Source: a virus | IMG/VR virus record: IMGVR_UViG_3300003320_000766 | Reading direction: 5' to 3' (one strand) | DNA: 64,000 nucleotides | In this document: piece by piece, positions 1 to 59,588 of the stretch | How positions within the stretch are numbered: position 1 is the stretch's first letter | How the letters are laid out: every line of letters begins with the position of its first letter | The notes under the pieces: model-generated | What the model was told of the DNA's origin: nothing | The model's input: only the letters and a program-made list of their open reading frames with translations | Database searches by the model: none | Program-made: the position numbers and the translations under genes

Positions 1-16
1 TGTAGAACGAAGAGAT

Positions 17-97
17 ATGAGCCTATTCGAATTCATTCACCTAATTATATCCTTCGTTAGCTGGATGGCTATAATCTATCTTTTCAACACTTACTAA
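17..97 (+). CDS. Short hydrophobic peptide (may be 5'-truncated by the window)
   Basis: Frame open from base 2; MSLFEFIHLIISFVSWMAIIYLFNTY then TAA at 95-97. Read manually. Confidence 0.35.
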   Translation: MSLFEFIHLIISFVSWMAIIYLFNTY

Positions 98-107
98 ATC
101 TAATTAC

Positions 108-299
108 ATGCCCAGAGAGCTTTCACGATTAGAATTATATTTAAAGCATGTGAACACCGATCTGAATTCTCTAAACATACAATTAAGCCACGAGTTCAGA
201 AATCAGAAACTTAATGCTCACATACGCAAAAGAATCAATTCCACCATCCATAACTTGGATAAAATCAAAATTAAATTAACCAATTACAAACAAGGTTAA
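108..299 (+). CDS. Hypothetical 63-aa basic helical protein
   Basis: ORF track; ends GGT TAA, which is the 5' strand of hammerhead 1. Confidence 0.6.
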   Translation: MPRELSRLELYLKHVNTDLNSLNIQLSHEFRNQKLNAHIRKRINSTIHNLDKIKIKLTNYKQG

Positions 300-340
300 C
301 TGACGAGCCCCACGGCGAAACCCGGAAACGGGTCTTAACC
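294..340 (+). ncRNA. Type I hammerhead ribozyme 1
   Basis: Stem I GGUUAA(294-299)/UUAACC(335-340); CUGACGA 300-306; stem II GCC-CCAC-GGC; GAAA 317-320; stem III CCCG-GAAA-CGGG; GUC triplet, predicted cleavage after C334. Confidence 0.88.
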
Positions 341-353
341 AAAACACATTCCA

Positions 354-635
354 ATGAACGAATTAGAAAAAATTTCTGTGCAATCAATCATGGAATTAAA
401 TACCGAAGCAACGGCTTTAAAAGGTGAGTTAGGGATGGCTGCTTACAGATACTACACAGAATTAGCCAAGATTGAAAAGGAACCAATCACAGAGAAGAAT
501 ACACAGTATACGAAAGATTATACGCAGAGACAACTCACCGAAAAATACCACAGAGAAGAACAGAATCTTAGTTCTCAGTATCGCAAGATAACGAGCAGGA
601 TTGAGGCTTTATGTAAAGCATTAATTGCAGGTTAA
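354..635 (+). CDS. Hypothetical 93-aa coiled-coil protein flanked by the two hammerheads
   Basis: ORF track; helical, charged; ends GGT TAA, the 5' strand of hammerhead 2. Confidence 0.7.
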   Translation: MNELEKISVQSIMELNTEATALKGELGMAAYRYYTELAKIEKEPITEKNTQYTKDYTQRQLTEKYHREEQNLSSQYRKITSRIEALCKALIAG

Positions 636-678
636 CTGATGAGGCAAGCGCCGAAACCAGCGAAAGCTGGTCTTAATC
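630..678 (+). ncRNA. Type I hammerhead ribozyme 2
   Basis: Stem I GGUUAA(630-635)/UUAAUC(673-678); CUGAUGA 636-642; stem II GGC-AAGC-GCC; GAAA 653-656; stem III CCAGC-GAAA-GCUGG; GUC triplet, predicted cleavage after C672. Confidence 0.9.
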
Positions 679-695
679 AAAACCACACGTCTATA

Positions 696-1799
696 ATGAA
701 CCACCTATTTAACTCCGACCCATACGGCGAAGTAATCTGCCGTTGGTTTACTCAACATTCCCCAGCTTCCATATCCCGCTCAAAGGAATGTACACTGGAA
801 ATCCTTTCAAGCCTTCTTATTGGCACCAAAGAAAATAGATACGGTCCTATTCCGGTGCCAGAGCACTTGGTAGTTATTCGCGAAACTATTCGCAAATCAA
901 TCGCCATGAACCTGCCGATTCCTATTCTTGTTCCATGGGGCGGCATCAAAGGGAACATGGAGGACCAGACATTGGATATTGCAGAAGTATCTGCGATCTT
1001 TCAGCTTCTACATTTAGACAAAACTATCCGAGAAATTTACGAACCGGGCCTTCTGATCAACGTCAGGATAGAAGACCTGGGGGCTGAATGGCTCTATCGG
1101 GAACTGTCAGTAAGCCGAAAAATCATCAATTACTCTTTATCTATGGAAAGGTTGATTGATAAGATTAAAGGCGAAACAGCAATCACTGGCATTTCAGAAA
1201 GTACGCTAATGCTTCCTGGAGATTATTTTTCATCCTCGATGGTTTATTCAAACCTATTGTTTGACATGATCAATCAACAAATTGAAAAACCAGAACGGGA
1301 TGTTAACGACATTGACGCGTATTGCACACTGGTAGAGATGGGATGGAAAGGTACTGTCCCTATTATACAAAGGGAATACTATATATCCCGCTATCGCAAT
1401 CTTTATCCGGATAAAACTGAAAAAGATTACATCCGTATGCTGGCAGATTATCTGGGAGGAGCCAAAGCCAGATACGATCTTAACGGAAGGGCAGAGCCTA
1501 CATCTGAGGTCGGTTCATATATCCAAATCACTTTCGTTCCACCTGTCCCAGGAGCACCCTCATCTATTTTTAACAATACCCTCTACTGGAGAAGTGTTCC
1601 TATGTCCCAATCCAGGAGCCATATTGCCCCCTGGAGAGCAAAGGGATATCTTAAGATAGGGGAAGAGACCGTTAAAGGCAAAATCACCAACTTTGGTGAC
1701 CCTGTTTTACAAGAATTGGTTCCATCCACCACTACTATCAGAACTGGTAATAGTCAACAAGACTTTGTAAAAATCAGCACTGACTACGTGATTGAATAA
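696..1799 (+). CDS. Dit1/PvcA (isonitrile/isocyanide synthase)-like protein, divergent
   Basis: PIPILVP..K...LDIAEVSAIFQLLHLDKTIREIYEPGLLINVRIED parallels the PvcA/IsnA pattern (LPAFP.KS..PD.AE..AL..L..L...I...Y.PG..I....D). C-terminal IQITFVP..APWR parallels RLSIHP..TPWH. Start moved from 639 to ATG 696 because 639 lies inside hammerhead 2. Confidence 0.65.
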   Translation: MNHLFNSDPYGEVICRWFTQHSPASISRSKECTLEILSSLLIGTKENRYGPIPVPEHLVVIRETIRKSIAMNLPIPILVPWGGIKGNMEDQTLDIAEVSAIFQLLHLDKTIREIYEPGLLINVRIEDLGAEWLYRELSVSRKIINYSLSMERLIDKIKGETAITGISESTLMLPGDYFSSSMVYSNLLFDMINQQIEKPERDVNDIDAYCTLVEMGWKGTVPIIQREYYISRYRNLYPDKTEKDYIRMLADYLGGAKARYDLNGRAEPTSEVGSYIQITFVPPVPGAPSSIFNNTLYWRSVPMSQSRSHIAPWRAKGYLKIGEETVKGKITNFGDPVLQELVPSTTTIRTGNSQQDFVKISTDYVIE

Positions 1800-1836
1800 T
1801 AAATTAAAAATATTTTTTTATCTCAATTAAATTACC

Positions 1837-1844
1837 AATCTTTG
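1837..1844 (+). promoter_or_regulatory. Possible Bacteroidota sigma-A -7 box (AATCTTTG, one mismatch)
   Basis: Near-match to TAnnTTTG in an AT-rich gap upstream of a terminated non-coding stretch. Confidence 0.35.
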
Positions 1845-1849
1845 TTAAG

Positions 1850-1969
1850 GCAAAGAGATAGACAAGTTTGTTCAATAGCTTTTTTCATAGGTATAGTAAT
1901 GTAGGTAATCCTACAACTCGAACATTCAGCTGCGAACCTAGCCGGTCTCTACTGGCTAGGTTTTTTTTT
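1850..1969 (+). ncRNA. Candidate small RNA
   Basis: Non-coding, between a promoter-like box and a strong terminator; contains UUUUUUCAUAGGU and the hairpin UGUAGG-UAAU-CCUACA. Confidence 0.35.
1935..1969 (+). terminator. Intrinsic terminator
   Basis: AACCTAGCCGG-tctcta-CTGGCTAGGTT stem followed by a T9 tract. Confidence 0.85.
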
Positions 1970-1995
1970 ATTTTAAAAATAATTTTAAGAGCAAA

Positions 1996-2760
1996 ATGAA
2001 AAGTGAAAATCTGTTTGGCATTAAATTTTCAGAAAATGTCGGCCAAATTAAGACACAAGTAATTAATCATATTAATGATCGAATGCTTAGCATTGATTTT
2101 ATCCCAGGTGGTGATCGTACAAACCTTGATAAACTCATGTCTGAAGAGGGGCTTAAACAATATTACATTACTCCAGATGTCATAAACATTTGCCAAAAAA
2201 TAAAAATTAGCAAGCCGTATAATTTAGATTGGATAAAAGCACCGCTGCATGTGAAAAAGCAGTATAATTTTGGTGATACTTTTTTCAGATTTCTATATGT
2301 CAATGGCAGCTATTTTGTCTTATCTTGTCATTCCTACAAAAACAACAAGGGGGGTGTAAGCATAAAAAACTATTTTATGCAGATAGACCTGGGCGCAAAA
2401 AAAATGCAGATTGCTGATGATGAATATGCCGAAACTGCTCTAAAGTTATTTTTACAATTACTTGCCTTTATAGAGTCAACAGAAATTGAAGAGGTAACTG
2501 TTACTCCAGGTAAATGGTCTCCCAAAGAAGAAAAAGAACAGCTTAAAAACCAAGCCGCCTTCCCTATTGTAATGGTAAAAACAAACTGGGTTAAAACTCT
2601 CATTCGAATGGAAGGTTTTGATGTCTCAGGACACATTCGCCTACAGCGCCATGGCCCTAACAATTCGCTGGTAAAATCTATCTGGATAAATCCATATACA
2701 AAAAAAGGATATACACTTAAAGCCGGAAAAATAAAAGAGGAGGAAAATAGTTATGAATAA
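1996..2760 (+). CDS. Hypothetical phage protein (254 aa)
   Basis: Long ORF; C-terminal VSGHIRLQRHGP..IWINPY motif of a kind common in uncharacterised phage proteins. Confidence 0.75.
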   Translation: MKSENLFGIKFSENVGQIKTQVINHINDRMLSIDFIPGGDRTNLDKLMSEEGLKQYYITPDVINICQKIKISKPYNLDWIKAPLHVKKQYNFGDTFFRFLYVNGSYFVLSCHSYKNNKGGVSIKNYFMQIDLGAKKMQIADDEYAETALKLFLQLLAFIESTEIEEVTVTPGKWSPKEEKEQLKNQAAFPIVMVKTNWVKTLIRMEGFDVSGHIRLQRHGPNNSLVKSIWINPYTKKGYTLKAGKIKEEENSYE

Positions 2761-3022
2761 ACCAGATAAAATAGAGGAGAAACCGGTAATAAGTCAAGAA
2801 ATAGTTTCTTTTCTTTCGGACCTAATCTTGCTGACTACATTCGCGAAAAGAAAAGGAGTAAGCAAAGATGCTGTATATTACAATATTCGTAATGGCAGAA
2901 TTAAGGAAGACGATTTGATTTGGATAGATATTTACCAGTACATTCGCTGGAGCCAATATAAGGACTTCAGCTTTAAAGACCATGCATTAAGTAAAACTTC
3001 TAAACGAGCAAGTAAACGGTAA
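2753..3022 (+). CDS. Helix-turn-helix DNA-binding protein
   Basis: LTTFAKRKGVSKDAVYYNIRNGRI, excisionase/MerR-like HTH pattern. Confidence 0.6.
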   Translation: MNKPDKIEEKPVISQEIVSFLSDLILLTTFAKRKGVSKDAVYYNIRNGRIKEDDLIWIDIYQYIRWSQYKDFSFKDHALSKTSKRASKR

Positions 3023-3025
3023 GCT

Positions 3026-3250
3026 ATGTCACTTGTTATATGCAATTCCATAGGAAGCATTGATCTTTGCAGAGGATGTGGTGCAGCGAAACCACATTTA
3101 CATGGCAGCTGTGAGCCTTGTCCAGTGAATAAAGAAGCTCACTGTATAGTGTGGTCCAATATTCCGTCTGATCATTTAACAACTCATAATTCAAATAATA
3201 ATTATCATGATGAAGCCAAGGAATGGGAAGGTGCTAATCCTTCCAAATAA
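3026..3250 (+). CDS. Small Cys/His-rich protein
   Basis: CRGC..PHLHGSCEPC..HC cluster. Confidence 0.55.
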   Translation: MSLVICNSIGSIDLCRGCGAAKPHLHGSCEPCPVNKEAHCIVWSNIPSDHLTTHNSNNNYHDEAKEWEGANPSK

Positions 3251-3512
3251 ACCAACAGAGGTAAGCAAAGGTGGGATAATTATCCCTGAAGCTGCTAAAA
3301 AGGATCAGGACAAAGGTAAAATAGTAGCTATCGGTGAAGACATAACAGATGTCTCTGTAGGAGACCACGTTCTATTTGCCAAGAACAATGTTACCCTCAT
3401 GTCGTATGAAGGAATAAATTATGTCATGGCAAATATTGATGACATAATGGGCGTAATTAATAATTATCAATCGCTCATCCCAAATAATCCTGATGCTCAA
3501 ATTCAAAAATAA
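3207..3512 (+). CDS. groES: Co-chaperonin GroES/Cpn10-like protein
   Basis: MKPRNGKVLI..SKGGIIIP (mobile loop)..GKIVAIG..VSVGDHVLF..DDIMGVI. Start may be 3210. Confidence 0.9.
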   Translation: MMKPRNGKVLILPNKPTEVSKGGIIIPEAAKKDQDKGKIVAIGEDITDVSVGDHVLFAKNNVTLMSYEGINYVMANIDDIMGVINNYQSLIPNNPDAQIQK

Positions 3513-3513
3513 T

Positions 3514-3624
3514 ATGAGACAAAAGAAAGTAATCAATCCTAACAAGCTTGAACTTTATTATAAAATAGGTATAGTGGCTTGTTTCATATTCGAATGTATA
3601 TATTTTGCTTTTTTCAGCAATTGA
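3514..3624 (+). CDS. 36-aa single-TM peptide
   Basis: Manually read ORF MRQKKVINPNKLELYYKIGIVACFIFECIYFAFFSN filling the gap. Confidence 0.5.
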   Translation: MRQKKVINPNKLELYYKIGIVACFIFECIYFAFFSN

Positions 3625-3635
3625 ATTTAAACCAC

Positions 3636-4139
3636 ATGGCTTATCCTTTAGAAACGATTGTTTCACTACTTGAATTTGTGGAAATATTTGAAGCGAATAA
3701 AGAATTAACCACAGATGGAGAGATGGCTTATAGCGTCTTACCAGATGTATTAACCCATCCAGTTTTTATCATTACTTATGATGACGTACTAAATGAAAAC
3801 ATTATTCTCCTGATAGAACCAGGAAGAGTGGCCCCATTTAGCCCACATGAATCATGGGAAGATTTGATGTTCCTCTTACCATTGATTCATAATCAAATAC
3901 ACACTTACCAAAATGCCTCTACTGATGCCGTACAAAGGCATACCACTAATTATTTCCACAATTTCATTTTATCCATAGAAAAGAATATTACCGTTAGCTA
4001 CAGCAAGACTGAATGCTGGAACAACTTAGTTAAACTGGAATCAGCTTTGTATGCAATAAAAATTTATTTTCCAACATTAAATAACAGCAGCAATGGAACT
4101 ACCGGGGATGGACAACAAAGCAATGAACCTATTCAATAG
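3636..4139 (+). CDS. Hypothetical protein
   Basis: ORF track 3579-4139; ATG 3636 preferred (no overlap, A-rich leader). Confidence 0.65.
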   Translation: MAYPLETIVSLLEFVEIFEANKELTTDGEMAYSVLPDVLTHPVFIITYDDVLNENIILLIEPGRVAPFSPHESWEDLMFLLPLIHNQIHTYQNASTDAVQRHTTNYFHNFILSIEKNITVSYSKTECWNNLVKLESALYAIKIYFPTLNNSSNGTTGDGQQSNEPIQ

Positions 4140-4410
4140 GACCAAGATTGAAGAAAACGGTCTTCCGGTAATTACAAATTTGGAATTCCGTATATCATGT
4201 GAACGTCTAAGATCAGGTGACATGTCGGCATATGATGAAACTATTACTAAATACACCCTAATTGATGGGCAGAAAAATCTTTTTATCTCATTGTATAAAA
4301 AGTTGGTCCCAGAGCAAGACGATTATGACGAATTCACTAAGAACTATATTGCCACATATAATTTATTTCCTCATCCAGACTCTCCAAATTATTCATCTTC
4401 TAATATTTGA
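4093..4410 (+). CDS. Hypothetical protein
   Basis: ORF track; packed in the co-directional run. Confidence 0.6.
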   Translation: MELPGMDNKAMNLFNRTKIEENGLPVITNLEFRISCERLRSGDMSAYDETITKYTLIDGQKNLFISLYKKLVPEQDDYDEFTKNYIATYNLFPHPDSPNYSSSNI

Positions 4411-4413
4411 CTG

Positions 4414-4839
4414 ATGAGTTATTATACATATTTCAAATTCAAAATAAAGCTTCGTAAAGATACCCCTTTAGAAGTCATACATATTCTGTGTAACTCTATT
4501 GATAACATAGATGATATGACTTACAAAAAAGTAAATCATTCTTTTTTTGATCAAAAAAGATGGATGACGCTATTTCACAAAAATGCCTTTTTTGAAGAAG
4601 AAGGATATCCATGCCTTAAAGTATTTCCTCACTCAGGAAATTATGAATTAAAATTGATTGGTGAAATCAATAACGGTTATGATGAAATTAATCTTTTTTG
4701 TGACTGGATTTCTCCATATGTGATGGGGCATAAGAAAAAGCGTTTTTTGGGGGAAAGCAAGGGAGAAGAACAAAAAACATGCATTAACCATTATGCCATA
4801 TATGATTCCATATCTAAAAGTTATTCTTATAAATATTGA
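4414..4839 (+). CDS. Hypothetical phage protein
   Basis: ORF track; packed operon. Confidence 0.7.
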   Translation: MSYYTYFKFKIKLRKDTPLEVIHILCNSIDNIDDMTYKKVNHSFFDQKRWMTLFHKNAFFEEEGYPCLKVFPHSGNYELKLIGEINNGYDEINLFCDWISPYVMGHKKKRFLGESKGEEQKTCINHYAIYDSISKSYSYKY

Positions 4840-4850
4840 ACTTATATTAT

Positions 4851-5252
4851 ATGGTACTTAAAGATAAAGTGTGTACGCGGGAACAAGCAATCCAATTAAT
4901 GAATCTTGGAATATTTCAACCACTAGAAAGTGAAGAGTGGCAACCAGGAGACATCTATAGTTCACTTACCTCATCTTCAGACGATGGTTATATTTTTATA
5001 TTAGGTCATCAAGAAGATTCTCCTTATAAAATTTATCACCCTGTCAAACTATATGATTGCGCCGAACTTGGGGCAATGCTTCTCTCTTATAACGAAGCCT
5101 ATTATACTAAAAACAACATGTGGGCATGTGGTGATCTACCTGGAGCATTTCCCACAGAAGCGCAAGCTAAGGCTAATAGGCTCATACAATTACTTTCGGA
5201 TGAAATCTTATCCGCAACCGAAATAAATCACCTATTTAATGACCGTAAATAA
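4851..5252 (+). CDS. Hypothetical phage protein
   Basis: VCTREQAIQLMNLG N-terminus; ATG 4851 preferred to the TTG start at 4836. Confidence 0.65.
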   Translation: MVLKDKVCTREQAIQLMNLGIFQPLESEEWQPGDIYSSLTSSSDDGYIFILGHQEDSPYKIYHPVKLYDCAELGAMLLSYNEAYYTKNNMWACGDLPGAFPTEAQAKANRLIQLLSDEILSATEINHLFNDRK

Positions 5253-5257
5253 ATACC

Positions 5258-5629
5258 ATGAAAGAAACGTCTAACATTCCAGTAGAAGATATACTCAAAA
5301 AAGCCTTAAATACCGACAGGCTCAGTTTTTCTTACCGTGAAGTAGTTATTCCAGCTATAAAAAAATGGAATTACGAAACTATTTCTTCACATCAAGCCCT
5401 CATTAGTTTACAAGAAAAGGAGATAAAAGACCTTAGAGAAGAATTGCTTTTAATGAGAAAAGAAAAGGAACATGTTCTCAGCACTCAAGGAATCCTATTT
5501 AGGATCGGCTCTATTAATCGTCCGTTTATATCTCTTTATATGAATGAGTGGATATTCTTCGTGGCAATTGCACTTATTGCAGCTACTTCGATGTACATCT
5601 TACTTAGTATAATCCTATGTTTACAATAA
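5258..5629 (+). CDS. Coiled-coil protein with C-terminal TM helix
   Basis: WIFFVAIALIAATSMYILLSIILC hydrophobic tail. Confidence 0.6.
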   Translation: MKETSNIPVEDILKKALNTDRLSFSYREVVIPAIKKWNYETISSHQALISLQEKEIKDLREELLLMRKEKEHVLSTQGILFRIGSINRPFISLYMNEWIFFVAIALIAATSMYILLSIILCLQ

Positions 5630-5970
5630 ACGAAACGTTTTGCATGTACACAGTGATTGGGTACTTAGCAATTGTAATCAGCACAATATTAGTTGCAATT
5701 TTTTCATGCTTAAACTTCAATAAAAAAATGAAAGTCCAACTTAAAATATTAGACACTGATAAATTCTTTTATGATTCACCAAATGCTGGAGAACCTTCTT
5801 GTCTCTGTAGCAGATGTGGCAAACAAATCCCTGAAGGAGAAAAAATCCTCAGAGTGGCTGTTGGTGCTGATGATATAAAAACAGGCACTGGACAAACTGT
5901 AGAAGATGCCGCCCATGGCTCTGAATTCAGGCTTTGTGAAACCTGTTTAAAAAACATTTCTCATAAATGA
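5617..5970 (+). CDS. Membrane-anchored zinc-finger protein
   Basis: N-terminal TM segment; CLCSRCG...LCETCL. Confidence 0.6.
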   Translation: MFTINETFCMYTVIGYLAIVISTILVAIFSCLNFNKKMKVQLKILDTDKFFYDSPNAGEPSCLCSRCGKQIPEGEKILRVAVGADDIKTGTGQTVEDAAHGSEFRLCETCLKNISHK

Positions 5971-6320
5971 ATTATAAAAGAAAGTCGCCTTGCAATAACT
6001 GCCCCTATAGGATAGATGCTCCTCTTAAATTATGGCATATAGAGGAATTTAAAAAGCTATTACATGCGGAAGGAACTACTCTCGGCAGGGTATATGGTTG
6101 TCACAAAAATGATAACCATGTCTGTGTTGGATGGCTAATAGATCAGGATAAAAGATATTTCCCATCTCTTTCTTTAAGAATTGATCTAAGCAGAAACAAT
6201 GTGGATAGATCGTACTTAAACAACTTGAAAAGTCCTGTTCCATTATACAACTCAATTCGAGAAATGGCATATGCCAATTACCCACAATTAAAACTTTTGA
6301 AAGATGGAAAATCTCAATAA
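5967..6320 (+). CDS. DUF6283-like Cys-rich protein
   Basis: PCNNCPYRIDAP..W..EEF..GCHK..VCVGW pattern recalled for this family. Confidence 0.55.
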   Translation: MNYKRKSPCNNCPYRIDAPLKLWHIEEFKKLLHAEGTTLGRVYGCHKNDNHVCVGWLIDQDKRYFPSLSLRIDLSRNNVDRSYLNNLKSPVPLYNSIREMAYANYPQLKLLKDGKSQ

Positions 6321-6618
6321 GGATACCTTTTGGGACAATTGCTATTTTCTTTATCCGAAATCCACTCAGAAATTCTGTAACTGGATTGATGAGTATAAAA
6401 AGAAAGTGGGCTGGACTACCTTGTTTAAAGAAGACGTGAAGTTTCATGATATCCCATTAGCCATGCAAACTGGTATTTGGTTAGAGTACATGCAGGAACA
6501 GGGCTGTTATATGGAAATAGACGTTATGGAATTTGATTTAGAGGATGATATATTAAACTGGATGTGTCAGGGTGAAATGGCGATTCAAAAACTAGAAGAT
6601 GGTGAAAAATTTAGTTGA
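6304..6618 (+). CDS. Hypothetical acidic protein
   Basis: ORF track. Confidence 0.6.
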   Translation: MENLNKDTFWDNCYFLYPKSTQKFCNWIDEYKKKVGWTTLFKEDVKFHDIPLAMQTGIWLEYMQEQGCYMEIDVMEFDLEDDILNWMCQGEMAIQKLEDGEKFS

Positions 6619-7000
6619 TGGACCACCTATAGGTATTTTAGTTACCTGGGGGAAAGATATGATTAAGGAAAAGGGAGGGCTTTTGGCTTTCCTCAGGTAT
6701 TTTGAGCAAGGCATGTATTCAGAGGATTTTGGCTGGCTCCATAAATGCAATCATAAACCAGCTCACGATATCCTCTATGTCTACATTGTCGTTTGTAATC
6801 AAATCCGCTATAAGCTCTATTACGGAGGATATCAAACTGGTCCTACCACAATTTATAATGGTGATGGTAGATCATGGAGCTCCTCACAGATAATTAATTG
6901 GCCACGTTTAGTATTGGCTGGACCTGTAGTAAAAGCTCCTTACAAAATTCCTCAGAAAGGCTTTCAAGGCTTTAGATACATATTTACTGAACCTTTTTAA
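6599..7000 (+). CDS. Hypothetical protein, possibly PUA/ASCH-like
   Basis: C-terminal PYKIPQKGFQGFRY resembles ASCH-type termini; weak. Confidence 0.45.
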   Translation: MVKNLVDGPPIGILVTWGKDMIKEKGGLLAFLRYFEQGMYSEDFGWLHKCNHKPAHDILYVYIVVCNQIRYKLYYGGYQTGPTTIYNGDGRSWSSSQIINWPRLVLAGPVVKAPYKIPQKGFQGFRYIFTEPF

Positions 7001-7015
7001 CTTAAACTTTCTTCT

Positions 7016-7231
7016 ATGGAAAAGAAAAAATGGCTACGCCTGACAACTCCTGATAATGAAGGCTACATAATTGGCGAAGCGAATGCCGATAATATTGTAG
7101 ACTCATTTACAGCAGTTGGACAATGGATTCAATCTGACATAGAAAGTGACCCGGATACAGACCCTGGGGATTATAGGATTGATTATGTAATGATGACCGA
7201 TGAAGAGGTAGAAAAACTTCCAGAACCATAA
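7016..7231 (+). CDS. Hypothetical acidic protein
   Basis: ORF track. Confidence 0.6.
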   Translation: MEKKKWLRLTTPDNEGYIIGEANADNIVDSFTAVGQWIQSDIESDPDTDPGDYRIDYVMMTDEEVEKLPEP

Positions 7232-7241
7232 ATAAAAGCAG

Positions 7242-7403
7242 ATGGAAGAATTAACTCATAGTAATGGAATACCGGATATTTTCTGGTTTTTTGTTGGAAT
7301 TGGTATAATGGTTTTTCTCTGCTGTGGCGGCAGGGCATGGGTATTATCGTCGAAACAAAAGCAACATGAAGAATCCACGGAAACAAGTAATAAAAAAACA
7401 TGA
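7242..7403 (+). CDS. 53-aa single-TM protein
   Basis: Manually read MEELTHSNGIPDIFWFFVGIGIMVFLCCGGRAWVLSSK... Confidence 0.5.
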   Translation: MEELTHSNGIPDIFWFFVGIGIMVFLCCGGRAWVLSSKQKQHEESTETSNKKT

Positions 7404-7605
7404 GTGGGAAAGCCATGTATACGGAAAATGCATTCACTGCAAAGTTCACAGATCACTTCAGGAAGCTTATTGGAATATAGGACGTAGATACATATACAGA
7501 GACGTAAACGGAATAATATTAGATAAGCTACCAAAATGTATTACTAGTAAAATACCAGCAGATGAAAGCACATCAAACAAAGACTCCTCTTTCAATGTAT
7601 TTTAG
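7366..7605 (+). CDS. HEW-CxxC-PxC zinc-finger paralog 1
   Basis: KHEWESHVYGKCIHC...LPKCIT; ATG 7366 preferred. Confidence 0.6.
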   Translation: MKNPRKQVIKKHEWESHVYGKCIHCKVHRSLQEAYWNIGRRYIYRDVNGIILDKLPKCITSKIPADESTSNKDSSFNVF

Positions 7606-7711
7606 AGGAACTCTATTTCGCAATATTGAATATAAGTTTGATCGGTTTTTCATTCCATATCGTAAGAATGGATATTGGTACGAAAGAACTTATAACATCA
7701 TTTTAAACTAA
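7562..7711 (+). CDS. 49-aa hypothetical aromatic-rich peptide
   Basis: Manually read MKAHQTKTPLSMYFRGTLFRNIEYKFDRFFIPYRKNGYWYERTYNIILN. Confidence 0.45.
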   Translation: MKAHQTKTPLSMYFRGTLFRNIEYKFDRFFIPYRKNGYWYERTYNIILN

Positions 7712-7724
7712 ATACATTTTCATT

Positions 7725-8207
7725 ATGACCAAAGAAGAACTTTTGAAGCAAATGGGCTTTAATGAATATAAGAAGGCTCAATTATCTTGTGAGGCTTGTG
7801 TAATAGAATCTTCTGACAAACAAGTAAAGCAAATGCCACGCCATACCTGTGGCTTAGATGGGCCAAACGATAACGATATGGAAAAAGAAAAAAATAATAC
7901 TCAGCAAGTAATCCAAAAAGATTCTAAAGCTGCATATAACGCTAAAGTACTTAAGACAGCGGAAGAACTGGCGAAGATAGAATATGAAGAAAGATCCACT
8001 GCCTTCTGTGATGAATTCACCTGGGACGCACTGGACCAGCATGCCCAGGAGGTGGCTATATCGGCTCAAATGAGAGCAGCTCACGCAATGATTGATAGAG
8101 AACTCAAGTCTTTTGAAGATGGATATCTGACAGCCGTCAATCATCTGAAAGGCGGTTATATGCCAGACTGGAAATCTACAGCGGCTAAGCGCGGACTTAT
8201 TCCATGA
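7725..8207 (+). CDS. Hypothetical protein
   Basis: ORF track; N-terminal CEAC..HTC. Confidence 0.65.
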   Translation: MTKEELLKQMGFNEYKKAQLSCEACVIESSDKQVKQMPRHTCGLDGPNDNDMEKEKNNTQQVIQKDSKAAYNAKVLKTAEELAKIEYEERSTAFCDEFTWDALDQHAQEVAISAQMRAAHAMIDRELKSFEDGYLTAVNHLKGGYMPDWKSTAAKRGLIP

Positions 8208-10522: not shown

Positions 10523-11173
10523 TCATACCTCTTTAGAAGATACTATATCGAATGCTTTCTTAGCCCTTTCCCAATATTCCATCCTTTCTTTATATCCATT
10601 AAGCCCTCCATTTATCCGTTTCGTAAGATTTTTAAAATCCCCTTGGTCTGCCAATTCATTTAAATTATTTTTTTGCCAATAGAACATAGCAGATTGAACC
10701 GCTATCGTAGGAGTAGTGATATCGCCTGGACGTTCAAGAAGAATATTAGCGTCAGCATATATATGCTCGCTCAATTCTTTATAATTATCCTTTCCTGTCG
10801 TCTGGAATATTCCTCCCCCTCTATACTTGTATCCATCTCCACTTGCCTCTGGACCATTCCCCAATCTATTTGCATATACCCTATTACCAATTTTAGTTGG
10901 CTTTCCTATATATTGAAGGGCTATTTTAACAGATTGGAAATATTTTGGGAATATTTTCATCAATCTGGCACTATTAGTATACATTAAATTTTCACGAAAA
11001 CTAGTAAATCCCCCGCTTTCATGTGCGGCCTGAGCCAAAAATGCCGCCATTCTAACTGGTGTATTTATTTGATATTTTTCAGAATATTCATTTATCCAAA
11101 AGACAAGCTGATCACCCGTAGCAGCGCCCACACTTGGAGCAATGGCCTTCAACTGATTCTTAGTTATTTTCAT
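10523..11173 (-). CDS. Glycoside hydrolase family 19 endolysin
   Basis: AAFLAQAAHESGGF..EN; YRGGGIFQTTGKDNY; TKRINGGLNG. Confidence 0.92.
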   Translation of the reverse strand: MKITKNQLKAIAPSVGAATGDQLVFWINEYSEKYQINTPVRMAAFLAQAAHESGGFTSFRENLMYTNSARLMKIFPKYFQSVKIALQYIGKPTKIGNRVYANRLGNGPEASGDGYKYRGGGIFQTTGKDNYKELSEHIYADANILLERPGDITTPTIAVQSAMFYWQKNNLNELADQGDFKNLTKRINGGLNGYKERMEYWERAKKAFDIVSSKEV

Positions 11174-14100
11174 TTCTCTTCTTTTTTGAAATTAATTTGT
11201 CCTTTGAATTGTTTTTGAAGATCAGCTTTTGCTCTATCAGTAGCTCTTCTGGCTTTATATTCATCCGTCCATTTACTATCTTTCATCATCTGTAAATGAT
11301 ATTGACGTTGCTGGTTATAATATTCCAATTGTTCTCCAGTCCATTCTACTTCTTTATGATTAATCTTTATTTGCGGTTTGGAATTGGGATCATTCATTAA
11401 TCTCCAATAAGGGTCTCCTCTTTCTTTAGCTTTATTTCTATTCACCACCTGAGCTGCGGTATTTAAAATACGACGGGAATCGCCTTCAGCAAAGCCAAAT
11501 ATACTCGCTATATTATACATAGCCGTCATTGTCAATAACACTTTTTCCTGAGGCGTAGTAGCAACTACTTGGCCTTTTTTATTCGTATATGTGGTGAGAA
11601 CATTTTTCATATAATCCCAGTTATCCAAATTTGGATTAATGAGAATGTTAGCTCCTGGATACGCATTGGACCTATAATTAGGGTTATCTTTTATTCTATA
11701 AATAAATTCATCGTCTCCAATTGCTTTATTGATACCTTTTGCTACTAGATCAATTGAAAAATTACCAAGCAAGCCAAAGAACATATTCATAGCTGATTCA
11801 CTAATTACTTTATGCCAAAAATCTTCATCCTTCTTTGGTGGTGGTTCAACCCCTATTGCAGACAGCAATCCATACGCTAACGGTTTTATAACATATCCTG
11901 TTAATGCACCGCGAGCTGCCTGAAAAGCCAATTCTGCCACCATCCTTGAACCAATTGATCGTAATGCCGTTAATTTTTGATTCAACAAATTTTTATTCCT
12001 GTATCCATCTTTCCATGAAAGTGCATTTGTTGTAAGAGTTGCAATATCATTGGCCAACAATGCATTGTTATTCATATTGAATGAAGAGAACGGTAATAAT
12101 ATCGCGCGTGTTAAAGACCCACCACCAGAAGAACGTGCATAAAAATCTGACTGACTTGCCTTGGAATTAACGTTTAATCTGGCAGATGTCATTAATTGAG
12201 CATAATCCCTTGCTTCTCTATTTATGTTATCAGCTTCTTGTTTCCAATCTACTTCGTTGAAACTTTTAACTATCCCTTGCTTTTTAAGAGAAGAAACATA
12301 ATAAGACAACCATGCAACTTTAGCAGCCCATGTATCCGGCGCTTCAATCAAATGTGACAAAACATCCTGATCTTTCAATTCGGCATTTTTACCAACTCTA
12401 CTTAACGTATTTTTTATTTCACTTAATGCATGAGCATTCAACCATGCAGTTCCACCGAATGTATGACCACGCAATCCTATTTCTGATTGCTCAAATAATT
12501 TAGACAGATTTGCATTAGTTTCCTGGCCCTTAAAAATTGGTGGATATTTCAATAATGACTGTATAAATAACCCTGCATCCATGCCTAAATTAACCACTGT
12601 ATTTGCAATTATATCCGCTGGCTGTTTTATTAATTGTCCTACGGAAAAAAGCGCCATTCTTGCCCCTATTTTTGTGATTGCACCAGCAACATCTTGCGCA
12701 ATCACTTCAGCTGTTCCAGCATTCAATCCACGTTTACGTAATTTCATTTGGGCCTTTACCTGATTCTCTACATTCCTTGCCAATACCTTCATGTTTTGTG
12801 AACCAATTGCTTCTTTAAAACGACGATCTTCCAAAGCTTCCATGGCCTCCATTCTCGTTTTTAAAGTATATATGTCTTCTAACATGCTGGTAGCATTATA
12901 AATCTGAACATTATCGAAGTCATGATTTATTACACGCTTTCCAATACTTCTGCCTTCTGCATCTGTTACATCGATATTATTCAGATTATTAAAAGAATTC
13001 CTTTGCAATGATGCATTGGATGCCACATTCATATTTAATGGAGGAGTGAATCCAGATGATGCAATATTAGCTAAATCTCCTTCTGTGATATTAGTTTGCA
13101 ATGTTTTGTAACTATCTTTCATATAGTTATTAACATCATTAAATGGCCTATTCAATAGAGATTCGGATAGTTCACGAAATCTTTCTTTATGAGTATCGTA
13201 GAATGTTCTAAATAAATTATATACAGCCCTTTCTCCAGGAGATAAAATATCAGCTTTTTGCAAATCATCATATGATTTGATATTTTCAAAATATTTTTCG
13301 AAAATATCCTGCAAAGCAACTGCCTCTTCTCGATCAGACTGTTCATCGCTGTTAGACTTAATGGCTATATCCTGCATAACTATGCCTTTTCTTCTATCGA
13401 ACTCTTTTTGAGTTTCATCTTTATTGCCATAATTATTCTGAGCCAGATAGGCATATATTGATCTTTTGAAATTACTTTCATAAGTTCTTAACCCTTCTTC
13501 TTTATATTTTTTGTAAATGCCTTTTAAAGGTTGGATAACTGTTTTCTCCAATAATTGTTTAGCCTGGGCGTGTTGAGCTTTAAGATCACCCAATGCCGTT
13601 GCCTGATAAATCTGTCCAGCCACTTGCACGTCATTATTTGCTACTGCCAATGCAACAATGTCAGTTGAAGACAGCGCTTCCCTAAGAGCTCCCACATTAC
13701 TACTGAAAGCCTGTCTACTTATCGATTTCCCTGTTTTTTCAAAAAAATCCAGTATTCCTTTAGCTCTCTGTTGTCCTTTAAATTTTGCATCATAGGCTTC
13801 TACCATCGAAAAATCATTGTTCACAAGAATGTTATCAATGACATTTTTGAACGTTGATAATTCTTTATTACTCATATTATCAACATTCAACTCTAACATC
13901 GATTTCACCCATTCCTTTTGTTGCTCATTAGCATTAAAATCTGGTGCTTCTAATGCCAGAGATAAAAATGTCTTCCCTGCTTCTATAAGAGGCATTATTC
14001 TGTTTCTTATTTTACTGGTAGCCGGAGCGTTATTAACCGCTTTTATTTCATCATATATATCGTCAATAGATACATAATTACCACCTTCTTCTACTTGCCT

Positions 14101-17100
14101 TTCAAAGGCCAACATAGCCTGCCTTAAAGCCTTTAACTCATTTGCCTTTCCATCCAAAGATAATTCCCTACTTCCCATGACAGCATCGACAATTGTATTA
14201 AATTCCTCTCTATTTAGAAAATTGCTAACTCTATATTCAGTATTATTTTCCAGGGCCAGCGTCACGGTATTTATATATCTATCCTTAAGATCATTTGCTC
14301 TTTCTCTTAAGGCAATTTGTCTTTGGGTATCGATAAAATTAATAATGTCATCATCGCTTTCAACCAATATATCCTTTCCCTCTAAAGAATTTACTACATT
14401 ACTTAGCATAGCATTAAAGCGTAAAACCTCTTGGATTTGTAGAGGATTTACAGCTTTCAACGCCTTTAAAACTGAGGTTCCCAAAACTTTGCTTTTCCGA
14501 TTCAAATTAGCCGTCAAAACAGAATTTGATTTAATTAACGTTCCGAGCCTGGATTGCAATGCTTTAATACTTTGAAGAGTCCCTGCTACAGAGCTATTAT
14601 CAATTAACTTCTGTAGGAAGTTAGAGAAATCCTCTAATCCTTCTTCATTACGAATATTACTTACGGTCTTCCCCATGTTGATAAGGTCACGCTCTGTAAA
14701 CGTACCTGAACTCAACAAATCGGAGTCATATAAATTCTTCAAAATGCTTCGTACCTCCTCCTGCACCGATCTCATTTCTTGTAGTGATGCTTGATATCCT
14801 AATTTACTGCCCCTCTCCATAAATGCCAATTGCCTGCGCAGCAAAGACATCTCAGTTGCAGTAACCATTTTTGGATTATTTTGCCTCAAATTTTTCAATA
14901 TCGAATTGGCAGTTACTTTATTATCATTTGAAGATATCATCTCCTTTAATACTGCCACATATGTATCAAGTTCAAGTTCATCCAGACCCAGCTCTGAATT
15001 AAATTCTTTTAATCCCATATCAGGATTATTTTTTAACAACTCCAACCCCTGGGTTAATTTTCTAATACCGAGTCTTAATTCCCTGGCCTGAGCACGTGCA
15101 TCTGAAGCACTTTCAGGAGTATTATTTTGTTCTGCTTCGGTGATCTTCTTTTGCTCCCAAGCTCTTAGCCTTTTCAAATATTGTTTATAAGTTTCTCCTT
15201 CTTGTTTTAATGGAGCCGGATCATCGGAAGCAACCTGCCACGCGCGTCTCATATGCTCGTTAATCGTCTCTCCAATTTTTGAAGCGAATTCCTCCAAAGA
15301 CCTCACACCTTGGGCGATATAAATTTTTGCCATCTGGATATAATTGGCAATAATTCTTGCATCAGCCCTTGCATTTGCTTCAGGACTTATACCTAAAACA
15401 TTTTTTCTTTTTTGTTCCCTAAGCGCAGCATTTTCTTTGGCCATTGCCTTGATATACGCTTTCTCTGCTTCTCTTTGTTGATTTTTAGCCGATTCATAAA
15501 ATTTTTTACGGGCCTGATATTCAGCTGACCTTTTATCTTTTACAGCTTCCAGATCAGCCTTCCTTTTAGCAACTAAATTATTTGCCTCATTCAGTTTAAT
15601 CACAGCTTGTCCAACATCACTTATTGGCCTGCTGGCTGGCTCGGCTTGGCTATTTTCAGGCGTAAGCTGACTCCCTTCTGCTTGAGCAGCCTTGGCTCCT
15701 TTATATATGGAGATAAGCTCGTTTTTGGAATATTGATTTATCCTACCGCGAACAGCGTTATTAGGGTCCGCATCCAAGATTCCATTATATAGATCACCCA
15801 TGGACATTTGTTCAATATCCTTGTTTTCCTGATCTGTTAATCCACCAGTTTCAGATACAGGTGTTCCTTCTTCCTGTTCAATATACACGAGAGGATTAAA
15901 GTCTTCTTCAGAGGAAGGAGTAGCTACCTCCTCGCTAGTCTGAGGGGTAGCCTGCTCCTCTGTGGTTGTTACGCCTTTTTCTTCTTGGCCCGTTCCTTCA
16001 CTGAGAACGCTATTGCCAATGCCTGTTTCTGCGGTTTGCCCGCTTTCATTTCCGCTTGGACGTTCTTGCTGAACGCCTCCTTGCTGCTCGATTTGATTAG
16101 TGGCATTTTCGTTTTGATTTACTGGTGAGACAATAGGAGCCGCCTCAGTAGCCTGTAATTGATCTGCCGCAGGCGGTGCCGTTTCATTAACTGTAGTAAC
16201 ACCTTCTGTAGGTGAAGTCTCCTGAACAGGTTGTTCATTTGAAATGTTTTCGTTAATACTATTCTTTTCTCTGAGGTCTGCCCAATATTTGGTATCTAAG
16301 TCAGCATATCTGGTTGCATCTTCATCAGAAATATTTGAACCATAATTTCCTTTGCTAATAAATTCTTGTGCAGTTATTTTCCCATCTAAATAGTCATACG
16401 CATTTTGAGCCTGTATTTTAGCATCTTTTAGCGCTTTTTCCTCATTCTCCCGCGCCCACTCCCTTCCATATTCCGTCATTGATGGATTAGCTTTTATATA
16501 ATCATCAATTGTCACATTATCAATCACAAACTGGGTAACAGGGGTATTACCTTTATCTTTCTGCTGGGATGATGTCGGCTGATTTTCCTCTACAGTAGAT
16601 ACTTCTGGAGCCTCTTTATTTACTGGAGTACGCTGAACAGGACGTAAGTCTTTTGCTATTTCTTCACCAGTGAAATCCTCACGAGTCCCATCTGGAAATT
16701 CCAGGGTATATATACCCTTATTTTCTGAAATTACTTTTACCTCTCCTATTCCAGGAGATTCCAATGTAGAGCCTACTGCATATGCAACCGTTGGAGCAGG
16801 CGCTTGTTCTTGGCTCGTTGCCTCTGTGGTCTGCACATTCTCTCCACTTCCTTGAATATTTTCTGAACTTTGCGTCTCGTTTGCGGAAGATATTTCTCCA
16901 CCTTCAGGCGTACTTGTAGATTGTGCTGTAGTTTGAGTATTTTCTTCTTCTCTAACATTTGTATTTTCATTTGCGGAAGGCTTTCTCATGGAGCCTTCCA
17001 ATATTTTGTCGTTTGCAATATAATATTCGTTCTGCCGGTCTTCCAACTGCGCTCTTCGCCTACTACCTTCAGGTAATGCTTCTGCCTGATTTTTATATGC

Positions 17101-22921: not shown

Positions 22922-25900
22922 TTATTTTTCGCTTCTTTCAGAACCGATTAAGCGTGTCCAGATATTATTCAACTCATTATATGCTGATTTTTTCCTTGGG
23001 TCTCTGACTAATCGCATCTTAACCCATGTTCCAAACATTCTTTTACCATCAAATAGCATTGATCTGTATTTTTTGTCGTCAACAGGGAAAGAATTCATAT
23101 CACACAAAATCTCTGCATAATATACTCCCTCTTTGTTTACGAAATAAGCTAACGGGAGATAGCTGAAACTATCACCTTCTTTCGTTGTGATCATATCTAT
23201 AAAGTATGACAACCCAGTACTTTCTACAGTAATGCTTTGGAATGTTTTTATTTTTGAGGGGTCAAAGTTTTCTACAATAGTTAATACTTGATCTATCTCT
23301 ATTCCATAAAAAGTATTGAAAGTTGATGTGGTAGTAGTATTATGGAAATATGGTATTCCATTCATAAATGTTACCAGCTCTTCTCCTGTTACACTATGTC
23401 GTAGAATTCCATATCCCTCTGGTGTAAAGCCCTCCCATCTCATCCACCTTTGTTCCGCTAAGTTAAAAGTGAACGTCTCTTGATGACTTATTTTGATTTC
23501 TCTTTCATTGTTTGTATAATGATAAGGCGACTCCGACAACCCTCTTCTCGGTCTAAAAGTAATCATATACTCTCCGTGCTTTACATCTTTCCCGGCCACA
23601 ATTTCTATTAGGTTTTCCAAATATTCTTTGCCCGGTTGAAGAGAGTTATTGTGCTGGGATACATATCTGAATTTTTCAGTAAAATATCCTGAATTTTGGA
23701 TTTCGGCTATACCAGAAGCGGTACGATAATCCATAGCGATAACATTGTTGTTTTTTCTATCAGCCCAAAAAGCCACCCCATCATCATCATATACAATCGT
23801 AGAATTATCTTCAAATTCACATCCGTAGTTAGCCCCTATTTTTTGATGAGGGTCAGACAAATTATTGTCCAAATTTGTTTGAACTAATCCCTGAGCATTC
23901 ACACGTAAGAAATTCATATTATAATCTGTCAAGAACCAGTTATTTTGGCAAATGAAAACTATAATACTCCTTTCGGCATGTACACTTACTATCCCTCCAA
24001 ACTCTTGCCCTTTGAAATCCTTCCTATTCTTTGCTCTAAATGTCCCCAGGCCATTCACCCTTCCTTCATTTACAAAATCATCTGATTTAATTGTATCATT
24101 TCCATACCATTTTTGCTCTGCTTGAGGGTCAATCGTACTGACTCTACCCGCACTTGTACATTGATTCCCCCAAAAATCTGTTATTGATTGAGATTCGAAT
24201 GGATGTGCCAACGTTTTAGCTGTACAGTCCTTAGGTCTAATTATCCTGTTTTGATAATATGTATCCCATGTCTCAAATATCCCCCCAGTAACTCCATTCA
24301 TTAGCATGCCATTTTCAACAGGATAGGTTCCACATATTTCATAATACAGTTCTTTGTTCTCGCATTTATGGGGACGCATTATCTCAATCCAGAAAGCACA
24401 TTTATCCTTCAGTTTATCCATTCTTTTATCATATTCAATAATAAAAGATTTTCCATCAGGTTGATCTTCGCCCTCGTTCACTTGTTGTCCTTCTGTAGTC
24501 TCGTTAAAATCTGTTCCTAAAATAGGATAATCCATGAATGAATTATCGGCATCGACTTTAAACAAATTGCCATTACCATCGTCATATATCCTCAGGATAT
24601 CGCCAGCTACAAATTGATACCCCACAGTAGTAGCAAAATTATTTTCTTTATTAAAATCCAATAATGACTGAACCGTTATTTTAACTCTGACAGCTTCATC
24701 TGAAGTAGTAACCTCTTCCCCTCTTGCATTTAGGAATTGTATCTTATCTCCTACCCATTGAATGTAAGAAGCCAAGTTTAAATTAGATGTTATATAAAAT
24801 GAGATATAGCGTATATATTGGGGAAGCCTAAATTCGTCATTAACTTTCCAGCTAATTACGGAAGGAGCAAATACACCTGTTTCTAAAAATGTAGGTACAT
24901 CGATATACGTTATATTATTAGCAAATGTTTGTCTTCCTGCTCCATCATGACCGACAATAGCTATTCCATATCTACCACCGCCTTTTAAGCCCCTATTTGC
25001 CGTATTAATGTACTTTGCTGTAAGGGAAATATTAATTGGATAAATTCTTTCGCCAGGACAAGAACAAGATATAGGATGTTGGTATGGAAATGTAGGTAAA
25101 CATTTACAATCCATACCAACCAATGGACAACCTCCCAGCGAATTAAATATAATTCTATCGCTTGCCTGATCACGAATATTTCCCCTGTGAACTTTTAATG
25201 TAAATTCACCTTCACCATTTGTTATAGTGGCATTTCCCCTGGTCACCACCACGCTGATTCCGCTAATGCCATTACCATCCGAATCCACTACCTTTCCTTT
25301 TACTCTCACTTCATTACAAAGCTTATAACTTCCTTTCGAACCTTTAATCGAAATATTTTGGTCAAATTGTTTTTTACCTCTCGGCCTTTTACCTGCCGTT
25401 GTTGTAAGGAAAGGATTGCTTCTGGTCGTCATTTGGCATTCATATTCTCCCCAAAACACGACCTCGGCATTATTGGCTCCTCCTCGCTGAACCGACATCC
25501 AATAAAATCCATTATGATCTGTAAAAATACCTCCTCTGATTGTCTGTGGAAAACCTTCAGTAACTACATATTGCAGCAGTTCAATTCCCTTTGCATCTAC
25601 TTCATCAGTATCTGTAATATATCCCTGAAACCACTTTTCCCTATCTACATCAATCAAAAATGGCGGCATGAAATCAAGCACCAGTTTATTATAATCTTTG
25701 AAAGTATCTACGTCTCCATCACAAGCGTTAATCACTATTTCTTTTGTGGTGAAATCCGTTCTACTTGGAGCCCACTCATTTCCGATGGTTCCTATATTGG
25801 CCTGTCCATAAATGAAAGTTGATGTTTGTTGATAATTAACATCAGTCACCTTCACTTTATGTGAAGCGACTCTAAATATATAAGTCCCTGCTGGCACTAC

Positions 25901-59213: not shown

Positions 59214-59588
59214 TTATATGAATTTTTTATGGTTTTCTTTATTGAATGAGAAGGATAACATCCAATTTTTAATATCCATAAATTCGCTTTTTATCGGTAA
59301 AACGCTAAAGTATGGATGTATTGTTTTTTGTTCACGGTAATAAAAAAGAAGGCTTTTCCATTCCTGTGGTTTAGTGTCCTTAATGACATCTTTTATTAAA
59401 ACGTCTGGATGTTGTTGATAATATATCCATATATCTGATTCTGCTTTTTCTTCTTCCACTTCAATTATCCCTTTGTTTCTGATAACATACATAGTTGCCA
59501 TGTAAGAAGCAGCATCATTAAATGGAATGGCATATTCATTAAATGAATCTCTGAATATTAAAGCTCTTTCTTCCATGTCAATTTTCAA
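59214..59588 (-). CDS. Hypothetical protein
   Basis: ORF track; start may be 59576. Confidence 0.6.
   Translation of the reverse strand: MKIDMEERALIFRDSFNEYAIPFNDAASYMATMYVIRNKGIIEVEEEKAESDIWIYYQQHPDVLIKDVIKDTKPQEWKSLLFYYREQKTIHPYFSVLPIKSEFMDIKNWMLSFSFNKENHKKFI

Follow-up and report, generated by a model that had tools for sequence, protein, structure and literature searches.

Two type I hammerhead ribozymes with a shortened stem-loop II in the gene gaps of a phage locus, and the phage family to which they belong

The placement of hammerhead ribozymes between genes has been known in phages since 2011, when Perreault et al. (PLoS Comput Biol, PMC3088659) reported prophages in which single genes are flanked by multiple hammerheads and proposed that these process transcripts into single-gene mRNAs. 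In that study, clustered prophage hammerheads (three tandem arrangements) cleaved in vitro within native transcripts of about 2 kb, those of A. tumefaciens also cleaved in E. coli, and both circular products and regulated cleavage were raised as ideas. A 2019 review (PMC6765202) still regarded the function of phage hammerheads as open and called for more work, and a 2026 preprint (10.64898/2026.10.21.760802) reported a hammerhead cluster that falls below all six Rfam cut-offs. The locus discussed here lies near the start of a stretch of 64,000 nucleotides (hereafter, the window) from the IMG/VR virus record IMGVR_UViG_3300003320_000766. An earlier note, made from the letters of this DNA, had proposed that two type I hammerheads, here called HH1 and HH2, act there as cistron separators, and its remark that such ribozymes had already been reported in phage sequences is borne out by the work of Perreault et al. 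(PMC3088659).

The arrangement is compact, as two ribozymes, three genes on the same strand and a terminator-like hairpin following the third gene are accommodated in less than 2 kb. The two hammerheads were read from the sequence and with a descriptor scan, and the features of the locus are as follows, in window coordinates:

108-299, plus strand: open reading frame of the upstream cistron, 63 aa; the 5' strand of HH1 stem I consists of its final two codons, GGT and the stop TAA (297-299)
294-340, plus strand: HH1, type I hammerhead
294-299 with 335-340, plus strand: HH1 stem I, GGUUAA with UUAACC, 6 bp
300-306 and 317-319, plus strand: HH1 core, CUGACGA and GAA
307-309 with 314-316, plus strand: HH1 stem II, GCC with GGC, 3 bp, loop CCAC
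320-324 with 329-333, plus strand: HH1 stem III, A320-G324 with C329-U333, 5 bp, loop GAAA
334, plus strand: C17 of HH1; predicted cut between 334 and 335
335-353, plus strand: leader of the middle cistron, 19 nt, A/C-rich; begins with the 6 nt of the stem I 3' strand, followed by a conserved AA
354-635, plus strand: open reading frame of the middle cistron, 93 aa; its stop TAA (633-635) lies inside HH2 stem I
630-678, plus strand: HH2, type I hammerhead
630-635 with 673-678, plus strand: HH2 stem I, GGUUAA with UUAAUC, 6 bp, one of them a G-U pair
636-642 and 653-655, plus strand: HH2 core, CUGAUGA and GAA
643-645 with 650-652, plus strand: HH2 stem II, GGC with GCC, 3 bp, loop AAGC
656-661 with 666-671, plus strand: HH2 stem III, A656-C661 with G666-U671, 6 bp, loop GAAA
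672, plus strand: C17 of HH2; predicted cut between 672 and 673
673-695, plus strand: leader of the third cistron, 23 nt, A/C-rich
696-1799, plus strand: third cistron, 367 aa, with about 100 homologues on phage-like contigs
1934-1973, plus strand: terminator-like hairpin of 13 pairs (1934-1963) followed by a T-run, after the third gene

HH1 and HH2 are confirmed as genuine, complete hammerhead motifs. The invariant core (C3 U4 G5 A6 N7 G8 A9, G12 A13 A14, the A15.1-U16.1 pair and H17, which is not G) is complete in both, with all 13 invariant bases kept; the A15.1-U16.1 pair, which is included in the stem III counts of 5 and 6 bp given above, corresponds to A320-U333 in HH1 and A656-U671 in HH2, and H17 is C334 and C672, respectively. 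Stem II is closed by the G10.1-C11.1 pair (G307-C316 and G643-C652), and the three helices join at the core with a type I topology, where stem I is the open helix and loops close stems II and III. The order of the elements is also the same in the two copies, namely stem I 5' strand, core, hairpin II, GAAA, hairpin III, UC and stem I 3' strand, and stem I is flanked by A's in each of them (A293 and A341 in HH1, A629 and A679 in HH2). According to RNAfold, the hammerhead fold is the minimum free energy structure for HH1 and lies 0.4 kcal/mol above the minimum for HH2. When the whole window, which covers 64 kb of a 91.8-kb contig, was scanned on both strands (128 kb), the descriptor returned exactly two matches, HH1 and HH2, and no hammerhead appeared in 300 dinucleotide-preserving shuffles of the window under the strict descriptor; at the loose setting, such shuffles yielded 0.23 matches each.

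What had initially been described at this locus can indeed be read in the sequence: the full core, the 3-bp stem II and the GAAA-capped stem III, the use of the last codon and stop (GGT TAA) as the 5' strand of stem I in both copies, and the position of the cuts 19 and 23 nt before the next ATG (354 and 696), followed by A/C-rich leaders that match the leader seen in the family described below. The statement that stems II and III differ between the copies and yet stay paired is right as far as pairing is concerned, but stem II should not be taken for a different helix, as it differs by a single flipped pair at the middle position (C-G to G-C); between the two stems III there is one double change, plus an extra pair.

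Comparison with existing hammerhead models gave a divided result. At gathering thresholds, no Rfam model matched anywhere in the window. With relaxed thresholds, HH1 aligned to the RF00163 model (Hammerhead_1) over its full length (positions 1-45 of 45) with 18 bits and an E-value of 0.2, the gathering score being 34, and HH2 gave weak alignments to RF03152 (16.6 bits) and to the type III model RF00008 (15.4 bits). Such scores are better seen as a limit of the models than as evidence against the motif, because the ribozyme models of Rfam also had no match at gathering thresholds in five related loci (L121-L125), where all 14 canonical copies of L121 remained below threshold. On the contrary, R1, a covariance model built from 39 equal-length, independent phage hammerheads (alignment A1), recognized HH1 with 45.2 bits (E-value 6e-9) and HH2 with 56 bits (E-value 1e-11), and a search of the window with this model up to an E-value of 1 returned nothing beyond these two elements. 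The cmscan check suggested in the earlier note was therefore negative with Rfam, where all scores were below threshold, and positive with R1, and an abundant family of phage hammerheads appears to be missed by the current Rfam thresholds. Compensatory change is abundant in all three helices of the 39-member alignment underlying R1, with free covariation in stems II and III, even though the alignment's figure of 100% paired positions is circular, as the sample had been chosen for pairing.

The extent of this family became apparent from an exact-pattern scan of IMG/VR with a signature made of stem I (GGUUAA type), core and GUC, which matched at least 120 contigs, many with 2-5 copies, and from whose listed matches (loci L001-L120) 171 distinct elements were extracted. 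Among these 171 listed elements, the consensus reads A(-7) in 99%, G-G/A-U-U-A-A, CUGAYGA, GAAA, GUC, UUAAYC and AA; stem III varies freely in sequence, with a GNRA cap that is common to the family, HH1 and HH2, and stem-loop II is 13 nt long (4 bp with a U-N-A-N-U loop) in 151 of the 171. In most of the listed members the distance from the cut to the ATG is 19-27 nt, with a mode of 22, and identical blocks of 14 and 11 nt flank every cassette in the GGUUAA subfamily. A second scan, in which stem I was left free, added 77 further distinct type I elements from at least 120 loci, about 9 of 120 being shared with the GGUUAA scan. In this unbiased sample stem I sequences are diverse and the architecture is alike, with a 6-bp stem I in 56 of the 77 elements, A(-7) in 65, A(+7) in 58 and a 13-nt stem-loop II in 40; given this diversity, the GGUUAA form is to be regarded as one subfamily of a broader phage class. 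HH1 and HH2 carry the 6-bp stem I, A(-7) and A(+7), and the ATG lies 19 and 23 nt past their cuts; they are, in our opinion, genuine members of this large type I hammerhead family of tailed phages.

Members of the family are located in the intergenic gaps of small, mostly early genes. In four whole virus records we counted 4 to 9 hammerheads each, confined to one region and to one strand, the coding one. Loci with arrays are common, and the extreme example is L121, a 59.6-kb contig (JGI 3300066489) with 14 type I hammerheads in 9 kb, occupying nearly every gap between small genes (region 194-6585). At another locus, L130 (21-1378), four hammerheads have a common stem I, GUCUAA, and a repeated leader (aatcaagtctaa...), and these ribozyme-plus-leader units look like recent duplications.

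Against this background, the only unusual trait of HH1 and HH2 is their shortened second stem. Their stem-loop II measures 10 nt, with 3 bp closing a loop of 4 nt (CCAC in HH1 and AAGC in HH2), and has no U in the loop, a length found in no other of the 171 distinct elements listed, and none of the 77 elements in the unbiased sample has a stem-loop II of 11 nt or less. Scans of IMG/VR and of JGI metagenomes for the 10-nt form returned, among the matches listed, one other distinct element, which sits in two IMG/VR contigs (L127 and L128) and in one JGI metagenome contig (L240). In the family at large, position 9 of loop II and the base immediately following stem I on its 3' side vary together (U/A in 123 cases, G/A in 17, A/U in 7), and a U at position 5 of the loop accompanies A(-7) in 148 of 150. 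Such covariation suggests that loop II and the ends of stem I are in tertiary contact, a candidate explanation for the fixed combination of a 6-bp stem I and a 13-nt stem-loop II, and the loops CCAC and AAGC cannot make this contact in the same manner. The caution that no loop II tertiary partner was found, already voiced when the pair was first described, therefore holds and is sharpened by the comparison with the U-N-A-N-U loop of the family. Hammerheads that lack a contact between stem I and loop II need far more Mg2+ for fast cleavage than is free in cells. Cleavage of HH1 and HH2 in the cell is therefore plausible, although, with the 13-nt stem-loop II of the family missing, it would not necessarily be efficient at cellular Mg2+; the two are a rare derived form with a 10-nt stem-loop II and may cut more slowly than typical members. 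Comparing these short-stem copies with a canonical relative would offer a contrast able to show how much weight the tertiary contact carries for processing in cells.

With regard to the genes, a family search with the 63-aa upstream protein gave no match, and a homologue search with the 93-aa protein returned only itself. No convincing plus-strand promoter candidate was seen between the three genes. TAnnTTTG boxes, of the type used in Bacteroidota, occur 55 times in the window where about 82 would be expected, which is no enrichment, and for this reason neither host nor promoters were inferred from them. The hairpin after the third gene is the probable end of a transcription unit holding both ribozymes. 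Together, the lack of a convincing promoter between the genes and the terminator-like hairpin behind the last one are in line with the original proposal that the ribozymes are separators between cistrons of what appears to be a single transcription unit. The sequencing runs found to carry this stretch amount to one DNA run, from a root metagenome, with no RNA run listed.

Our preferred reading, to which we assign a probability of roughly 0.68, is that HH1 and HH2 are phage-family type I hammerheads that cut one three-gene transcript into single-gene messages. The genes at 108-299, 354-635 and 696-1799 would be transcribed as one RNA ending at the hairpin (1934-1963), and each hammerhead, judging from its intact core and helices, would fold during synthesis and cut after C334 and C672, respectively. 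As stem I is the open helix, the body of the ribozyme would stay on the upstream piece, which would also retain its stop codon and finish in a pair of hairpins with a terminal 2',3'-cyclic phosphate; the downstream message would begin with a 5'-OH and six ribozyme bases, within an unstructured A-rich leader of 19-23 nt before the ATG. Each cistron would likely benefit from a stability of its own and from a freely accessible start site. The window also encodes a protein with an Rv2179c-like 3'-5' exoribonuclease domain (60453-61037, minus strand), whose neighbours are a ComF-like PRTase_3 protein (59578-60456) and a HAD hydrolase (61034-61753); a phage RNA exonuclease could bear on why messages would end in ribozyme hairpins.

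The third cistron deserves a comment, as its start has been placed differently. The open reading frame call present in the protein database (386 aa, 639-1799) begins at the AUG at 639-641, which lies inside the HH2 core CUGAUGA. Because homologues of this protein are 360-377 aa long and a cut at 672/673 would sever the AUG at 639, the true start is very probably ATG 696 and the call from 639 is very probably wrong. Gene callers can, in fact, wrongly start genes at the AUG within CUGAUGA, which is worth bearing in mind when such loci are annotated. A Pfam search with the 367-aa protein gave no match, and a link to PvcA/Dit1 was considered and rejected, since only a distant homologue (P0091) reaches 24.6 bits on DIT1_PvcA, where the cut-off is 26.4. 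A homologue 49% identical to the 367-aa protein is encoded in L121, where a canonical hammerhead (3934-3984) directly precedes the homologous gene (ATG at 4001); the genes upstream of the hammerhead are unrelated in the two genomes. Four other contexts of the gene homologue (within L122-L126) showed no hammerhead, meaning that the ribozyme is dispensable for this gene: its position before the 367-aa gene is conserved in one relative and dispensable in others. A search of IMG/VR for related loci with the 367-aa protein found none, and blastn with window positions 1-8000 as query had no hit among 50,697 phage records. An exact 40-mer taken from the first bases of the window likewise occurs neither in IMG/VR nor in the JGI metagenomes. 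Both the window (3207-3512, plus strand) and L121 (8518-8772) carry a phage GroES (Cpn10) gene further downstream, past the ribozyme unit in the former and past the homologous region in the latter. L125, another carrier of the gene homologue, has a permuted tmRNA (62.9 bits) and a tRNA, at 3338-3641 and 1184-1256, and the virion module of the window includes open reading frames of 2950 aa (11170-20022, minus strand) and 1520 aa (22922-27484), the latter matching a generic virion structural PHROG only.

The stop codon embedded in stem I had been seen as the material from which each ribozyme is built, and this calls for a distinction. That the stop lies in stem I is correct for both copies; the notion that the helix was made from the stop was rejected, as the stem I TAA is used by the upstream gene in 54 of 169 GGUUAA elements among the matches listed and the helix is conserved with or without such use. 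In the same listed sample, the upstream frame ends at the core UGA in 26 cases, with a TAG that overlaps stem I at its first G in 19 and elsewhere, mostly a few bases upstream, in 60, with no upstream frame of at least 40 codons in 10; frames able to use the ribozyme's own stops are over-represented (the three frames count roughly 76, 57 and 26). Of 74 elements in the unbiased sample, 38 have a stop that overlaps stem I or the core, and a stop triplet stands immediately 5' of C3 in 15 of 77. A search of related phages for the stop-embedded arrangement, proposed at the outset as a check, thus showed it to be common but not fixed, with about one third using the stem I TAA. An embedded stop is common and the arrangement in the window is typical of the family. 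As GGUUAA is conserved regardless of TAA use, genes seem to end in a pre-existing helix, in keeping with ordinary phage packing. A precisely placed ribosome gate is not indicated by these data, even though any terminating ribosome would transiently unfold the ribozyme.

Other explanations for the pair need to be weighed against processing into single-gene messages. The idea that a ribosome terminating on the stem I TAA holds the ribozyme unfolded, so that cutting reports on upstream translation, draws on the stop lying inside stem I in both HH1 and HH2, on a stop overlapping stem I or core in about half of the family and on the over-represented frames just mentioned; we nonetheless find it quite unlikely, as stops are found at positions between about -30 and +11, counted from C3, where a tuned gate should be precise, a stop overlapping the next element is ordinary phage compaction, and the ribozyme can fold before the first ribosome arrives. 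Alternatively, HH1 and HH2 might be weakened relics which, having lost three bases of stem-loop II and the tertiary contact, are too slow and serve only as gap filler or as 3'-end hairpins. Several traits fit such decay: among the 171 members listed, the 10-nt stem-loop II is confined to these two copies, the unbiased sample contains none shorter than 12 nt, the loop whose bases vary together with the flanks of stem I is missing, and HH2 has a weak stem I that is absent from its minimum free energy fold. Relics, on the other hand, would hardly be expected to keep every helix, the flanking A's and a core complete in its 13 invariant bases, the differences between the two copies are compensatory, and their common shape of 3 bp plus 4 nt looks selected; moreover, it is established in vitro that the catalytic core is still active when stem II is cut to 2-3 pairs. 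On balance decay is unlikely, yet we leave it some appreciable weight. The same short stem-loop II could also be a distinct working design and not decay, either for slow cutting conditional on Mg2+ or on upstream translation that times the 93-aa and 367-aa messages, or for excision of a 338-nt piece rejoined as a circular mRNA. Such a design is distinctly improbable in our estimate; if true, it would assign a phage hammerhead a definite role in regulation.

Two further readings concern the DNA and the fate of the excised segment. Hammerheads might act mainly as recombination linkers at the DNA level, for swapping cassettes of small genes, with RNA cleavage being secondary. The unrelated genes found upstream of the unit formed by the hammerhead and the 367-aa gene in the window and in L121, together with the identical 14-nt and 11-nt blocks around every cassette of the GGUUAA subfamily, are what such linkers would leave behind, but strict conservation of the catalytic bases and covariation in the helices are constraints at the RNA level, and the constant distance to the start codon likewise indicates an RNA function, which makes linkers a rather improbable account. 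As for the segment between the two cuts, double cleavage would free a 338-nt piece (335-672) that could be circularised through the reverse reaction or by a host RtcB-type ligase, giving an exonuclease-resistant circular message for the 93-aa protein in which the UUAACC 5' end and the GGUUAA of HH2 rebuild a hammerhead across the ends. The HH1 3' strand and the HH2 5' strand do form six Watson-Crick pairs, where the partner that HH2 has of its own contains a G-U; of 14 pairs of neighbouring hammerheads in the unbiased sample, 8 have compatible stems I, compared to 3% of random pairs, and the ends left by hammerhead cleavage are substrates of RtcB. Several arrays (L133, L142, L145 and L224), however, have incompatible neighbouring stems I, and because many arrays are incompatible, the compatibility seen elsewhere looks like shared descent; a family-wide need for matching neighbour ends was rejected on the same grounds. 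Hammerheads lacking the tertiary contact strongly favour cleavage over ligation, segment lengths between ribozymes show no pattern, no RNA ligase, RtcB or kinase family was matched by Pfam among the 27 window proteins scanned, and circular or spliced products were sought by Perreault et al. (PMC3088659) and none was found. We therefore attach very little credence to a circular message.

Processing of the transcript into single-gene messages remains the reading that we favour, and HH1 and HH2 are best described as a well-supported ribozyme pair, with the stop-codon and gating claims not supported as distinctive features. The locus would make a clean and easily testable case for phage hammerhead function, and the family comparison provides several handles for such work: the fixed 6-bp stem I with its flanking A's, the covarying position of loop II, the leader of about 22 nt, and a natural pair devoid of the family's loop.

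When set beside known systems, the closest likeness is to the prophage clusters of Perreault et al. (2011), which also have coding-strand hammerheads in the gaps between small genes and several of them per transcript, co-transcription being deduced in our case; the examples tested there are other sequences, whereas HH1 and HH2 are type I elements with a GGUUAA stem I and a shortened stem-loop II. HH1 agrees with the Hammerhead_1 model (RF00163) in topology, with an open stem I, in its core and in aligning over the full length of the model, and departs from it in scoring 18 bits against the gathering value of 34. RAGATH-1 (RF03152) has in common with HH2 a very short stem II, and HH2 aligns to its ribozyme part (model positions 27-76), but it reaches 16.6 bits where the gathering value is 56.3 and leaves model positions 1-26, the 5' extension, without a match. 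Retrozymes and viroid-like RNAs resemble the locus in that two hammerheads of the same orientation bracket a short RNA with rejoinable ends, but the RNA bracketed here is an ordinary cistron of a double-stranded DNA phage, and many arrays of the family have incompatible ends. With the phage family represented by R1, finally, the two copies share the 6-bp stem I, A(-7), the AA, the GGUUAA/UUAAYC strands, the GNRA-capped stem III and the 19-23-nt leader, and they differ from it in a stem-loop II that is 10 and not 13 nt long and does not carry the U's that covary with the flanks of stem I.
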